Source: an uncultured Bacteroidota bacterium (GTDB lineage: Bacteria > Bacteroidota > Bacteroidia > Bacteroidales > P3). From it: a stretch of DNA of 64,000 nucleotides. This document shows positions 276 through 60,249 of the stretch, piece by piece. The notes under the pieces are model-generated. The model did no database searches. It saw only the letters and a program-made list of their open reading frames with translations, and had not been told where the DNA came from. The DNA is taken from contig CADAWR010000014.1 in assembly GCA_902791695.1 (NCBI GenBank), positions 6,717 to 70,716 of the forward strand, given 5' to 3'. Both the position numbers and the translations under genes were made by a program. Position 1 is the first letter of the stretch. Every line of letters starts with the position of its first letter.

Positions 276-320
276 ACACTATTCTTGCTAAAGCAAAAGC
301 CTAAACCGGGCTCCTATAAG

Positions 321-362
321 AAACCATGCTCATGATTGGAGATAATCATGAGCATGGTTTTA
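321..362. terminator. Perfect 17-bp stem hairpin between convergent clpP and the BspA-like gene (bidirectional terminator candidate)
   Basis: aaaccatgctcatgatt-ggagat-aatcatgagcatggttt followed by tt. Lies between two convergent stop codons. Confidence 0.6.
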
Positions 363-384
363 TTGGTACTTACTGGTTCCGGCG

Positions 385-2265
385 CTATTGTATCACCACA
401 ACCTTGCGGGCTGGATGGTTGCCTATCTTTATCATGTAGGTTCCTGCGACGGGGATGTAGAAGCGTAGGGGGATGTCATAGTCCTGCTTAGTGGCAAGAA
501 CGCGACCATTGATGTCGAAGAGTGTCACTGGATTACCCTCTGCCCCCTCGACCACTATCTGCCCTTGGCTTGCGTATATGTTGGCATTCAAAACCTCCAT
601 ACCGCCTATGCCCTCATGGGGAATATAAATGGTGTCGTGGATGACGATGGTGTCATAGATATATTGTGGCAAGTAAATGGTGTCATGAAGCCAAAGTGTA
701 TCAGTCTCAGGAATCAACAGAGTATCAGTCACAGTTATGGTGTCGTATAGTATCAACGTTAGCGTGTCTGTAATTGTGATAAAAGTGGTATCGTGAACGG
801 GAACATATACATAAAGTGTATCATGAAGTACCAGCGTGTCCTGGTAGGGAGTACCATTTTCATAGAAGTATGCCGTTAGTTGAACATCACCGACGACGGC
901 AAAAGTATATGGATTGAATGTTGAGCCATCGCTCCAATGCGAAAATATGTAGCCGCTGTAAGGAACAGCCACAACCGATGCGGCCGAGCCGTAAGCATAA
1001 TTGCCGAAACCAGTACACGTACCGTGAGTAATGCTGTCGACTTGAAGGCTTACGGCGAATGTGTCAATGCCGAAGATTGCGGTACGGTAAGCGTTTGCTG
1101 TGACAACAAATGGCCGCGGGTTCTGTGTATTGCCATCGCTCCACCGGACAAAATGATATGGTGATACCGCTGTTGCTGTCAGCATCGTGGTATCAAGATA
1201 TTCAAACACGCCGCCACCACTGACTGAACCAATTGTTGGGTCGGAACTCTGCACTTCAACCGTGTATTGGTTCTTGGCAAAACCTGCCGTCAGCGTACTG
1301 TCTCTATCAATCATAAGAGTGTCGGGATTCGCCATGCTGCCGTTGCTCCATCCAGTAAAATGGTAGCCATAGTTCGGGATTGCTTGTATCACAGCACTTG
1401 AGTCACATCTCACGTCATGTAGGTCCTCGTCTTGAACAACCTGTGCTGTGCCCCAATCGGGTGCCGTAGAAGATACCGACATAGAGAGATTCACCGATGG
1501 CACAAGATATGTATGGTTTGCACCGAACTTTGGATAATACGAGTGGTATGAGCCACAGGGGATGTCTATGACAAGGTGAAGTGTGTCGGTATAGAAAATG
1601 TCGCCGATCCATGGGGCAACATTAGAGAGAAAGATAAGAGAGTCCAAGTGCTTACCGTGTGATAAAGCTCCGCTGGCTATACTATTCACCGAACGGCCGA
1701 ATGTTACAGACCGAAGGCTGTAACACTGCGAAAGGGCGCCAGCTCCTATTGTAGTTACTGCGTCGGGAATGACTATTGAAACAAGTGATGTGTCGGCATC
1801 AAAAGTTTGACTTGCTATCGCAGTTATTGAATCCGGCAGAGTCACGGATGCTATATTATGGCAGCCACCGAAGGCCCCTTGGCCTATCTCTGTTACTGAA
1901 TTTGGAATGACAACCTCCGTCAAATACTGGCATGGACCGAACGCCCACATGCCGATAGTACGCACCGTATTGGGGATGACTACATGTTGCATCTCTGCAT
2001 ACGCAAACGCTTGGTAGCCGATTGCGGTCACGGGATACGTAATGTTGTCGTACACGATGCTGTCGGGAATTATCAAGGTGCTGTCTATCAAACTGCCATA
2101 GTTTGGGTAATTGTAACTTTTAAAGGTTACTTCTGCCTCACCGTTAGCAATATTGTAGTACAAAACATGACCTGACGGGGTTGTGTCCGGGTAGTTGTAC
2201 ACTTGAGCAGCCACACCGATTGTGAAAATGCAACCGATAAGAAATACCAATGTCTTTTTCATCAT
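385..2265 (-). CDS. BspA-like leucine-rich-repeat cell-surface protein with Listeria-Bacteroides (InlB B-type) repeats and a T9SS C-terminal sorting domain
   Basis: Start chosen at the internal MMKKTLVFLIGCIFTIGVAAQ signal peptide (ATG 2263-2265). Has LRR_5-type repeats (IPNSVTEIGQGAFGGC..., IPDAVTTIGAGALSQC...) and three Y(H/I)F(T/V/S)(G/R/H)WSDG repeats. The C-terminus (...GTYMIKIGNHPARKVVVIQ) is Por_Secre_tail-like. Confidence 0.85.
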   Translation of the reverse strand: MMKKTLVFLIGCIFTIGVAAQVYNYPDTTPSGHVLYYNIANGEAEVTFKSYNYPNYGSLIDSTLIIPDSIVYDNITYPVTAIGYQAFAYAEMQHVVIPNTVRTIGMWAFGPCQYLTEVVIPNSVTEIGQGAFGGCHNIASVTLPDSITAIASQTFDADTSLVSIVIPDAVTTIGAGALSQCYSLRSVTFGRSVNSIASGALSHGKHLDSLIFLSNVAPWIGDIFYTDTLHLVIDIPCGSYHSYYPKFGANHTYLVPSVNLSMSVSSTAPDWGTAQVVQDEDLHDVRCDSSAVIQAIPNYGYHFTGWSNGSMANPDTLMIDRDSTLTAGFAKNQYTVEVQSSDPTIGSVSGGGVFEYLDTTMLTATAVSPYHFVRWSDGNTQNPRPFVVTANAYRTAIFGIDTFAVSLQVDSITHGTCTGFGNYAYGSAASVVAVPYSGYIFSHWSDGSTFNPYTFAVVGDVQLTAYFYENGTPYQDTLVLHDTLYVYVPVHDTTFITITDTLTLILYDTITVTDTLLIPETDTLWLHDTIYLPQYIYDTIVIHDTIYIPHEGIGGMEVLNANIYASQGQIVVEGAEGNPVTLFDINGRVLATKQDYDIPLRFYIPVAGTYMIKIGNHPARKVVVIQ

Positions 2266-2276
2266 GTCCTTATAAT

Positions 2277-2292
2277 TATTTTTGCAAAAATA
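2277..2292. promoter_or_regulatory. Back-to-back Bacteroidota -7 boxes forming a 16-bp palindrome (TATTTTTGCAAAAATA); candidate bidirectional promoter
   Basis: TAnnTTTG reads on both strands. The minus-strand copy is about 20 nt upstream of the ATG at 2265. Confidence 0.4.
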
Positions 2293-2345
2293 CAAACAAA
2301 TAGCCAACTGGCAAAAAATAATTTCATCATGTCGCGGAAAATGTG

Positions 2346-2353
2346 TAATTTTG
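2346..2353 (+). promoter_or_regulatory. Candidate -7 promoter box (TAATTTTG) for the DUF3791/DUF3990 cassette
   Basis: Matches the TAnnTTTG consensus, 26 nt upstream of the ATG at 2379. Confidence 0.4.
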
Positions 2354-2378
2354 CATCTTGAAAAAGCATATATAAAAT

Positions 2379-2600
2379 ATGGGGAATAAACAGCAAGATA
2401 TAGCCTATTTCCTGTCGTTCTGTACAGAACAGTACAAGAACGAGAAACACCTGTCTGGCGGTGAGGCTGTTGAAGTGTTAGGTAAATATGGGGTGTTGGA
2501 TTATCTTGCAGAACATTACGAGATGCTGCATACCCAAGGTCGTCAATGGCTGATGGAAGACATTGACGAATATATTGCATTACGTAGAAAGGAGGCTTAA
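2379..2600 (+). CDS. Small helical protein, DUF3791-like
   Basis: 73 aa (MGNKQQDIAYFLSFCTEQYK...MLHTQGRQWLMEDIDEYI). Family recognised from memory. Its stop overlaps the next start (TAATG). Confidence 0.75.
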   Translation: MGNKQQDIAYFLSFCTEQYKNEKHLSGGEAVEVLGKYGVLDYLAEHYEMLHTQGRQWLMEDIDEYIALRRKEA

Positions 2601-3085
2601 TGAAACTGTATCACGGAAGCTTGGAAATTGTGCATAAGCCTGAAATACGCAAGGCAAACCGCACTCTCGACTATGGTAGTGGCTTTTACACGACGACCTC
2701 GTACGAACAGGCAGAAGCTTGGGTAAGACGCCGTATGGATGAGACCAAACGTGGTAAGGGCTTTGTGAATATATACACAATTCCGGAGTCTTTGCCGTCA
2801 TTCTTGCAGCAATTGATATTCCAATCGCCCACAGAAGAATGGGTGGACTTTGTGATGCGCAACCGTACAGAAAAAGGTTTTGTGCACGACTATGATATAG
2901 TATATGGCCCGGTGGCCAACGATCGCGTATATGCTGCCTTTGCCCTTTATGAAGGAGGTCTTTTGAACAAGCAAGACCTTATAAAGGAGCTTAAGGCCTA
3001 CAGTCTGGTGGACCAATACTTGTTCCACACGGAGGCGGCTCTCCAGGTACTAACATTTGTAGAAGCAAAGGAGGTGGCGCTATGA
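2600..3085 (+). CDS. DUF3990-like protein; predicted ADP-ribosyltransferase-fold (H-Y-E type) enzyme
   Basis: 161 aa. N-terminal KLYHGS and DYGSGFYTTTSYEQAEAW resemble the PARP-type LWHGS / GKGIYFADMVSKSANY elements. Start and stop overlap both neighbours. Confidence 0.8.
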   Translation: MKLYHGSLEIVHKPEIRKANRTLDYGSGFYTTTSYEQAEAWVRRRMDETKRGKGFVNIYTIPESLPSFLQQLIFQSPTEEWVDFVMRNRTEKGFVHDYDIVYGPVANDRVYAAFALYEGGLLNKQDLIKELKAYSLVDQYLFHTEAALQVLTFVEAKEVAL

Positions 3086-3300
3086 ATCTCGACATCACAC
3101 AAGGCAATCTTTACCTCATCCTGCCATCGAAGGTAAGCCGTATGGCAGAGATGCTTGCCGCCGACACCGGGAAGGACATCGTCCAGGCGGTGAAAGAGAT
3201 ATACATGTCAGACGTGTATAAGCAACTGGAGCAGGAATCAACCAAGCAGTGGCACCTTGGGCCAGTGGCGCTTTATCAAGAAATGTTAGCAAGTAAATAG
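3082..3300 (+). CDS. Small helical protein, second DUF3791-like paralog
   Basis: 72 aa, 4-nt ATGA overlap with the upstream gene. Its C-terminal ...ESTKQWHLGPVALYQEM parallels the first paralog. Confidence 0.7.
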   Translation: MNLDITQGNLYLILPSKVSRMAEMLAADTGKDIVQAVKEIYMSDVYKQLEQESTKQWHLGPVALYQEMLASK

Positions 3301-3312
3301 ACAGCTACGTAT

Positions 3313-3750
<438 letters not shown>

Positions 3751-7767: not shown

Positions 7768-7882
7768 CTCTTACAACAATATTTAACACAAAGTTGCGTT
7801 ATTCAAAGTAAATTAACGAACAGCGTGTTTAAACGTTTACAAAGATACAAAAAAACGTTGAACTGACCAAATAAAAAATGCA

Positions 7883-14226: not shown

Positions 14227-14286
14227 ACGGCAGAGGTTTTCAACCGATGGAGTTGAAAAAAATTTTGCCATGTCGAAAATAGTTAG

Positions 14287-14294
14287 TAATTTTG
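14287..14294 (+). promoter_or_regulatory. Candidate -7 box (TAATTTTG) upstream of tRNA-Glu
   Basis: TAnnTTTG match about 50 nt upstream of the tRNA 5' end. Confidence 0.35.
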
Positions 14295-28496: not shown

Positions 28497-28530
28497 ATGC
28501 GCCACCCCCAACGGTGGCGCATTTCTTTTT
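28497..28530 (+). terminator. Intrinsic terminator after the giant gene
   Basis: atgcgccacc-cccaac-ggtggcgcat followed by ttctttttg. Confidence 0.75.
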
Positions 28531-28553
28531 GCGCGTATATGGAAAAATGTTCG

Positions 28554-28561
28554 TATCTTTG
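28554..28561 (+). promoter_or_regulatory. Candidate -7 box (TATCTTTG) for the dipeptidase gene
   Basis: TAnnTTTG 34 nt upstream of the ATG at 28595. Confidence 0.45.
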
Positions 28562-52167: not shown

Positions 52168-52202
52168 TTGTAAATTTTATTTGTCAGTATTGGAAAAAGG
52201 TG

Positions 52203-52210
52203 TACTTTTG
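52203..52210 (+). promoter_or_regulatory. Candidate -7 box (TACTTTTG)
   Basis: TAnnTTTG 24 nt upstream of the ATG at 52234. Confidence 0.45.
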
Positions 52211-60168: not shown

Positions 60169-60249
60169 TGGTTTTATTTTTTTTGCAAAGATACACATTA
60201 TTGCTGGAACTGCCAAAAAAAACACCACGACACACACCGTTTGCCCCTC

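Follow-up and report, generated by a model that had tools for sequence, protein, structure and literature searches.

Systems closest to the cassette

The closest described system to the cassette reported here is PDC-M13, a candidate defence system in PADLOC-DB. Payne et al. 2024 (bioRxiv 10.1101/2024.01.29.577857) describe cassettes embedded in BREX, DISARM and type I restriction-modification (R-M) operons and kept 145 of them as untested candidates; in the available portion of that preprint, PDC-M13 is a computational "guilt by embedding" candidate without domain analysis or experiment. The part of its supplementary table that covers PDC-M13 gives the order FAM_00109>>FAM_00403>>FAM_00080 (A>>B>>C) with a count of 257 and the rotated order FAM_00403>>FAM_00080>>FAM_00109 (B>>C>>A) with a count of 112. 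The only other paper that mentions PDC-M13, a study of rumen metagenome-assembled genomes (MAGs), only counted its instances (3324). Here we analyse a cassette of three genes, A, B and C, at positions 2379-3300 of a 64,000-nucleotide (nt) window, the whole stretch of DNA under study, from contig CADAWR010000014.1 of an uncultured Bacteroidota bacterium. The genes are adjacent and co-oriented, and each matches its PDC-M13 hidden Markov model near full length: A is PDC-M13A (PDLC04433, E 9.2e-35), B is PDC-M13B (PDLC04438, E 1e-61) and C is PDC-M13C (PDLC04441, E 2e-30). The exact three-gene match means that the cassette is already known as a system, as a computational candidate only. An earlier reading of this DNA made from its letters alone (hereafter the sequence-only reading) had proposed a candidate novel system, a label that has to be withdrawn: PDC-M13 has the same three families in the same order, and the window cassette is one more instance of it with no system-level difference.

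Several other systems share parts of this architecture. DarTG consists of an H-Y-E ADP-ribosyltransferase (ART)-fold toxin and a co-encoded neutraliser, is carried on mobile elements and provides abortive-infection-type defence. CmdTAC is a tripartite ART toxin-antitoxin-chaperone module that is used against phages, and the effector of PrrC is an anticodon nuclease. DUF3990 (PF13151), the family of protein B, is known as the C-terminal toxin domain in type VI secretion system (T6SS) Rhs effectors, namely Serratia Rhs5 and Enterobacter RhsA, and a small open reading frame (ORF) immediately downstream of Serratia Rhs5 is predicted to encode an immunity protein (PMC4524185, PMC10763514). The embedding of PrrC-type abortive-infection genes in type I R-M operons is mentioned in the available portion of Payne et al. 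2024.

The present cassette differs from each of these. Where DarTG has a macrodomain antitoxin, two small helical proteins are found here, and searches of Pfam and PADLOC with A, B and C gave no match to DarT (DUF4433) or to a macrodomain, even with the limit set to E ≤ 1; the cassette is therefore not DarTG. CmdTAC is likewise a three-gene module around an ADP-ribosyltransferase or a protein resembling one, but the window cassette has no SecB-like chaperone, Pfam links neither A nor C to a chaperone or a known antitoxin, and B belongs to a different ART family. The Rhs effectors carry the same Pfam domain, whereas B is a stand-alone protein of 161 amino acids (aa) that begins at its own ATG and lacks an Rhs/PAAR delivery region; no Rhs or PAAR gene lies nearby, and a polymorphic (Rhs/T6SS) toxin was rejected. 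As prrC does, a copy of the cassette in Moraxella sits between hsdM and hsdS, but the cassette effector is ART-like and not an anticodon nuclease, and most copies, including that in the window, are not embedded in R-M operons.

Gene layout and translational coupling

The cassette and its two junctions, which contain Shine-Dalgarno (SD)-like motifs, are arranged as follows.

2379-2600, plus strand: gene A (73 aa), DUF3791 protein, predicted small four-helix partner (Pfam PF12668, E 6e-20; PADLOC PDC-M13A)
2590-2602, plus strand: A-to-B junction, SD-like AGGAGG (2590-2595) and TAATG stop/start overlap (2598-2602), from the sequence
2600-3085, plus strand: gene B (161 aa), DUF3990 protein, ART-fold putative effector (Pfam PF13151, E 1.4e-47; PADLOC PDC-M13B; AlphaFold2 model; Foldseek)
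3069-3085, plus strand: B-to-C junction, SD-like AGGAGG (3069-3074) and ATGA start/stop overlap (3082-3085), from the sequence
3082-3300, plus strand: gene C (72 aa), small helical partner, probable remote paralogue of A (PADLOC PDC-M13C; hhalign; helix pattern)

The three genes are real and strictly linked. A scan of one genome per species for relatives of B gave 309, from which 80 loci of Bacteroidales (L001-L080) were kept, and in all 80 of these tightly packed A-like, B-like and C-like ORFs occur in the order A-B-C. The chain of three ORFs joined by TAATG and ATGA, as described in the sequence-only reading, was exact in its positions. The overlap between A and B is kept in 66 of 77 loci and that between B and C in 76 of 77. 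The AGGAGG motifs of the window lie 4 nt (B) and 7 nt (C) 5' of the start codons, and an SD-like 5-mer precedes B in 37 of 79 loci (47%), C in 56 of 79 (71%) and A in none (0/79, 0%), compared with 17 of 668 other genes of the same Bacteroidales loci (2.5%), a background whose start codons were taken from crude ORF calls. SD sequences are rarely used by Bacteroidota. Together, the conserved overlaps and the SD-like motifs indicate that B and C are each translationally coupled to the gene before them as a conserved trait of the cassette and not by accident in the window. The enrichment of SD-like motifs may have arisen because re-initiation has to be coupled, or because the cassette came from a foreign, Bacillota-like source. 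The AGGAGG motifs coincide with conserved K-E codons at the C-terminal ends of A and B.

Family, fold and candidate active site of protein B

Protein B begins with MKLYHGS and also contains DYGSGFYTTTSYEQAEAW. It matches Pfam DUF3990 with 161.6 bits (cut-off 32.2, E 1.4e-47), residues 1-153 corresponding to positions 1-152 of the 152-position profile, and DUF3990 is included in the Pfam ART clan (PMC7955679), as the earlier reading had it. Relatives of B numbered 2942 among 1.84 billion cluster representatives, and 87 full-length ones (35-53% identity) were aligned for AlphaFold. No meaningful sequence match to B or to its 87-sequence profile was found among all PDB chains, and NCBIfam and PHROGs gave no match for A, B or C. 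The AlphaFold2 model of B computed from the 87-sequence alignment (predicted local distance difference test, pLDDT, 95.6; predicted template modelling score, pTM, 0.88) has seven strands, at residues 2-7, 29-32, 53-60, 71-73, 100-105, 137-142 and 152-160, with a helix at 35-49 following strand 29-32, which contains Y30.

When the model was compared to the PDB with Foldseek, weak matches were obtained to a cyanophage pre-ejectosome protein (E 1.5e-3) and to the PARP2 catalytic domain (4pjv; E 5e-3, probability 0.98, template modelling (TM) score 0.44), and PARP14 and cholera toxin A1 appeared further down the list. Among the predicted viral structures of BFVD, the best match was a direct homologue of B (27% identity, TM 0.75), and the next were ART-PolyVal-like (E 6.4e-5, TM 0.52-0.56), followed by several PolyVal-ART/PARP-like proteins. 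The predicted fold of B thus appears ART-like and is weakly placed nearest to the ART-PolyVal and PARP catalytic domains. ART-PolyVal domains, the best fold matches after the direct viral DUF3990 homologue, are ART-fold and borne on mobile elements like B, but they are parts of giant polyvalent proteins, whereas B stands alone in a separate Pfam family with no sequence-level match to them. A DarT-, Tpt1- or diphtheria-toxin-like identity of B was set aside, as none of these appeared among the sequence matches or the top fold matches.

Conservation was counted over 213 distinct family members, reaching down to ~25% identity. Within this set H5 is kept in 209 of 213, G6 in 204 and S7 in 189 (S or T in 195), and Y30, R89, G103 and Q139 are each found in all 213, with D99 in 212. 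D97 (86/213) and E145 (123/213) are less conserved. ARTs of the H-Y-[EDQ] type are defined by three motifs: H-G-[ST] in strand 1 (motif I), Y-x-x in strand 2 (motif II) and x-x-[EDQ] at the front edge of strand 5 (motif III; PMC7955679). Read on these motifs, B has H5-G6-S7, Y30-T31-T32 and D97-Y98-D99, where PARP1 has HGS, YFA and YNE. H5-G6-S7 lies inside strand 2-7 and Y30 inside strand 29-32 of the model, and D99 directly precedes the fifth strand (100-105), which fits x-x-[EDQ]; the invariant Q139, located near where strand 6 starts, could take this role instead. The codons of these residues are located as follows.

2612-2614, plus strand: H5, candidate triad residue (conservation)
2687-2689, plus strand: Y30, candidate triad residue (conservation)
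2894-2896, plus strand: D99, candidate triad residue (conservation)
2864-2866, plus strand: R89, invariant residue (conservation)
3014-3016, plus strand: Q139, invariant residue (conservation)

His5 and Tyr30 had been proposed as elements of an H-Y-E core, and both turned out to be essentially invariant across homologues and to lie in strands 1 and 2, respectively. For the acidic element the sequence-only reading had left a choice between HDYDIVYG and LFHTEAAL. The former, which supplies D99 at the front edge of strand 5, is favoured, and the latter is refuted by the incomplete conservation of E145. On the model and the family alignment, D99 is most likely the acidic element of B, and R89 and Q139 are additional candidate active-site residues. 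We infer that B has the ART fold and belongs with the enzymes of the H-Y-[EDQ] type, and use of nicotinamide adenine dinucleotide (NAD+) is predicted for it.

The small proteins A and C

Protein A matches Pfam DUF3791 with 71.4 bits (cut-off 25), and the same family is matched by all 48 of 48 diverse A-family members. C has no Pfam match, and DUF3791 is matched weakly (E 0.041) in one of 52 C-family members. Consequently C lies outside Pfam DUF3791, and the label "DUF3791/DUF3990/DUF3791" given to the cassette in the sequence-only reading is not literally right. The relationship that it implied between the flanking proteins fared better. BLASTP gave no alignment of A to C, and hhalign with shallow profiles gave a probability of 5.5%, whereas profiles widened with viral-contig homologues gave 74-77% (E 2-3e-5) over 52-56 collinear columns that cover nearly all of both proteins; controls against B stayed below 1%. 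Nine ORFs were matched by the A profile and the C profile alike.

A natural C-A fusion homologue was also modelled (pLDDT 87.4). Its helices span residues 4-31, 35-43, 46-52 and 63-82 in the C half and 85-102, 106-115, 118-124 and 134-148 in the A half, so that in either half a pair of short helices stands between two long ones. The hhalign result and this matching helix pattern give moderate support to A and C being paralogues, and C is probably a remote paralogue of A, as the earlier description of divergent helical paralogues had it. The fusion model had no Foldseek match in the PDB (best E 2.2). A comparison of A to LPD11, a polyvalent-protein-associated domain, remained sub-threshold (E 0.025-0.054, in 3 of 48 members).

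Gene fusions and rotated gene orders

Fusions of every pair of the three proteins occur in nature. B-C fusions (P0129, P0241 and P0265) and an A-B fusion (P0216) were identified, and the C-A fusion family is widespread, with 239 clusters; it includes the "DUF3791" protein of 149 aa that is found on plasmids of Bacteroides and Phocaeicola. The recurring gene orders are only ABC, BCA and CAB, which are rotations of one cycle. The pairwise fusions, the rotated orders and the translational coupling make a strong comparative case for A, B and C acting as a single physical unit, and these sequence comparisons argue for one ternary complex.

Distribution on mobile elements

The chromosomal contexts of the cassette are hypervariable: clustering the 270 neighbours from the 80 loci gave 225 clusters, and the commonest Pfam family among 143 immediate neighbours occurs at most four times (≤4/143). 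The cassette is also found on 92 plasmids. A 7.66-kb mobilisable Phocaeicola plasmid holds little beyond rep, mob and the cassette, which adjoins rep on Clostridium botulinum plasmids of 17-23 kb. C. tetani plasmids with the collagenase gene colT carry the cassette, as do 98-kb plasmids common to Bacteroides and Parabacteroides species; on B. fragilis pBF9343 it lies beside a zeta-toxin gene. A further 130 IMG/VR contigs contain it, with integrases, invertases, DNA methyltransferases, repressors and Ant as neighbours, and it is present in accessory regions of prophages. In all, it spreads over three phyla.

On the Moraxella osloensis plasmid NZ_CP069435.1, B-C-A is flanked by hsdM and hsdS, and every junction is a 4-nt overlap. 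This embedding is the same ground on which, in the available portion of their preprint, Payne et al. 2024 named PDC-M13. The hsdS gene downstream of B-C-A (locus L250, 5208-9203) is annotated as two fragments of 681 and 552 nt, which may point to decay or phase variation of the host R-M system. Another possible trace of R-M embedding was seen in a DUF3990 representative of 281 aa (P0184), which has a 120-aa N-terminal extension resembling the C-terminal part of HsdS (LDHLITLHQRKQKLL); the extension probably stems from read-through or a wrong ORF call at a cassette that lies inside a type I R-M operon. The cassette is thus mobile, on mobile genetic elements or inside R-M operons.

Members of the B family also occur without partners. 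B is alone in 10 of 80 viral loci, and the cultured 141-kb phage Geobacillus virus E3 encodes a solo DUF3990 homologue with 28% identity, gp30 (locus L252, 2968-3576), located two genes downstream of an integrase-like gene; the A and C profiles find no adjacent partner there.

Proposed mechanism and competing explanations

On balance we lean towards the reading that the cassette is a mobile toxin/neutraliser module for abortive infection and/or addiction. It draws on the use of DUF3990 as an Rhs toxin domain and on contexts like those of toxin-antitoxin (TA) and abortive-infection modules, namely small plasmids, prophages and embedding in type I R-M operons. The sequence-only reading had put forward such a logic, toxin/neutraliser or defence, and it fits these contexts. 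As in TA-like modules, the genes are small, adjacent, overlapping and mobile, and they are found on plasmids, next to rep on those of 7.7-23 kb. In the proposed mechanism, B would use NAD+, through the putative triad H5-Y30-D99, to ADP-ribosylate an essential macromolecule, either protein or nucleic acid, and thereby stop growth. A and C, as paralogous small four-helix proteins made in a fixed ratio with B via translational coupling, would hold B in an inactive state by binding to it, probably in the form of an A/C pseudo-dimer. The trigger that releases or activates B might be phage infection, loss of the carrier element or loss of the surrounding R-M complex. Freed B would then arrest the cell, which could serve abortive-infection defence, stabilisation of the mobile element by post-segregational killing, or both.

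A stronger form of the toxin/neutraliser reading is tentative and carries clearly less of our confidence. It holds that the cassette is a tripartite immune or addiction system of a mechanistically new kind, in which a heterodimer of the paralogues A and C would clamp an H-Y-D ART and sense a phage or element-loss signal, and the freed enzyme would hit a target, possibly nucleic acid, unlike the characterised ART toxins.

A number of observations weigh against the toxin/neutraliser reading. B had no fold match in the PDB at E ≤ 1e-3, and its Foldseek TM scores to solved ARTs were 0.38-0.44. D99 was assigned to motif III from its secondary-structure position and its conservation. Neither a DNA-binding nor a known antitoxin fold was detectable in A or C. 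Defence genes are rare around the Bacteroidales loci, no single defence or candidate model reaching more than 3 of the 143 immediate neighbours, among which no defence-island enrichment was seen. In the window itself, the cassette probably heads an operon with dut amid housekeeping genes. No experiment on PDC-M13, DUF3990 or DUF3791, and no published assay or biochemistry on DUF3990, was found in the searchable literature. Finally, the stable B-A and B-C fusions mean that a classical labile-antitoxin mechanism fits poorly, and an autoinhibition or sensor model fits better. CapRel is a fused toxin-antitoxin with an autoinhibition/sensor mechanism.

A role in helping plasmids and phages to establish themselves is attributed to phage ARTs and to the ART-PolyVal domains that injected polyvalent proteins carry. 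The cassette might similarly serve mobile-element establishment or counter-defence, with B ADP-ribosylating some factor of the host, for instance a protein of defence or transcription, and A and C acting as specificity or regulatory subunits and not as antitoxins. The nearest structural relatives of B, which are phage ART-PolyVal domains and the cyanophage pre-ejectosome protein, would suit such a role, and so would the presence of the cassette on conjugative or mobilisable plasmids and on phage and prophage contigs, the B-only phage homologues such as Geobacillus virus E3 gp30 and the faint matches of A to LPD11. We nevertheless consider an establishment role unlikely: the matches to LPD11 reach no threshold, a place among the overlapping genes of a type I R-M operon would be odd for an anti-restriction function, many copies, including that in the window, are chromosomal and in non-mobile housekeeping contexts, and DUF3990 serves as an antibacterial Rhs toxin.

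A lower probability still is given to B being a non-toxic modifying or repair enzyme, either an Arr-like small-molecule ART or a Tpt1-like phosphotransferase, with A and C as accessory proteins or chaperones and a metabolic or resistance benefit to the carrier. B is small (161 aa), its putative H-Y-D triad recalls that of the rifamycin-inactivating Arr, and the plasmids that carry the cassette also carry accessory traits. Arr-ms and PTS_2-RNA are moreover in the same Pfam clan as DUF3990 (PMC7955679). Against these points, Pfam and NCBIfam show no cross-match to any characterised family, Arr and Tpt1 included, the best 50 PDB fold matches contain neither an Arr nor a Tpt1 structure, and the obligate link to two tiny partners, the coupling and the R-M embedding are atypical of resistance or repair genes. 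DUF3990 is also used as an Rhs toxin.

Least probable is a catalytically dead ART-fold scaffold, with the trio as a structural or regulatory complex that has no NAD+ role, since the triad is usually lost in pseudoenzymes, and although many ART-clan families are inactive, among them PARP13, TASOR and LRRC9 (PMC7955679), and the fold matches of B to active ARTs are weak, the essentially invariant H5, Y30, D99, G6, R89, G103 and Q139, kept down to ~25% identity, argue for a conserved active site.

The cassette within an insertion between clpP and dut

In the window the gene order is clpP, a BspA-like leucine-rich repeat (LRR) gene on the minus strand, A, B, C, dut, namZ, a nitroreductase gene and recQ. 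The features around the cassette are as follows.

276-3312, strand not applicable: inserted segment of ~3.0 kb, BspA-like gene and A-B-C (comparison with L167 and L168)
385-2265, minus strand: gene for a BspA-type LRR surface protein, co-inserted divergent neighbour (Pfam LRR_5, 7.9e-31; Flg_new_2)
2266-2378, plus strand: divergent intergenic region of 113 nt, expected site of the cassette promoter (sequence)
3313-3750, plus strand: dut (dUTPase), context and not part of the module (Pfam dUTPase, 1.3e-33)

Cassette-free relatives of the locus were found by anchoring on dut in metagenomes. In the two closest, L167 and L168, the dut product has 96% and 89% aa identity to that of the window and the clpP product 97% and 96%, respectively. 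In both, clpP is followed by dut at a distance of 34-88 nt, with neither the BspA gene nor the cassette. As clpP directly precedes dut in the closest relatives, positions 276-3312 of the window represent a 3-kb insertion comprising the BspA gene and the cassette. The GC content is 44-50% within the inserted segment and 55-65% in its flanks, and no direct or inverted repeats bound the insertion. The sequence-only reading had taken the cassette for an insert between a surface-protein gene and dut; the insertion is real, but the surface-protein gene belongs to it, and the site of insertion lies between clpP and dut.

The BspA-A-B-C-dut arrangement is also present in L003, and the closest cassette, L001, is in a different context. 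An LRR-domain gene was found just upstream of the cassette on a 167-kb replicon of Segatella copri DSM 18205 (locus L249, 4483-5214), and LRR_5 is among the few recurring neighbours of the cassette (3/143). The BspA-like gene and the cassette may be together by coincidence or as a loosely co-travelling pair. A hairpin (321-360) separates the convergent clpP and BspA-like genes at the left end of the inserted segment; it has perfect 17-nt arms, AAACCATGCTCATGATT and AATCATGAGCATGGTTT, and a 6-nt loop, and is probably a bidirectional terminator.

The earlier claim that the cassette has its own promoter was supported in part. A is the first gene after a divergent intergenic region, which is an argument from geometry, and a Bacteroidetes -7-like site, TAATTTTG, lies upstream of A at 2346-2353. 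On the other hand, no -33 TTTG is paired with TAATTTTG in 2266-2378, where the full -33/-7 promoter (2285-2315) is on the minus strand only and serves BspA, and a scan for sigma-70 promoters was not above chance (5 sites compared with 2.8±1.6 expected). In the 64-kb window as a whole, the Bacteroidetes consensus TTTG-N17-23-TAnnTTTG was found at six sites (2285-2315, 7840-7871, 14264-14294, 28528-28561, 52180-52210 and 60186-60217) compared with 0.57 expected, which confirms Bacteroidota-type transcription signals in this genome. The divergent intergenic region also has two copies of the 12-nt TTTCATCATGTC, at 2257-2268 and 2322-2333, 65 nt apart. The first spans the start codon of the BspA-like gene (MMKK, minus strand) and the second is an upstream duplicate; the repeat may be a remnant of insertion or recombination or a regulatory repeat.

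Downstream, 12 nt separate the stop codon of C from the start of dut, and no terminator-like site was found in 3300-3313. This short gap without a terminator indicates that dut is probably co-transcribed with the cassette. Since dut directly follows clpP in the closest relatives, the insertion probably put dut under the cassette promoter.

Significance

What this analysis adds to the PDC-M13 entry is the probable assignment of H5, Y30 and D99 together with the exclusion of E145, and the placing of C outside DUF3791 yet likely as a paralogue of A. The fusions of all pairs, the rotated orders, the SD-like enrichment, the frequency on plasmids and the clpP-dut insertion polymorphism are also new here. 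The module itself is unlikely to surprise a specialist, but it is abundant and found in three phyla. Its abundance extends from the 3324 instances in rumen MAGs to plasmids of Bacteroides, Parabacteroides, C. botulinum and C. tetani. Once shown, the target of B and its control by A and C would give a function to two domains of unknown function, and the defence/TA repertoire of gut Bacteroidales would gain an ART-based module. They would also explain a class of T6SS effectors.

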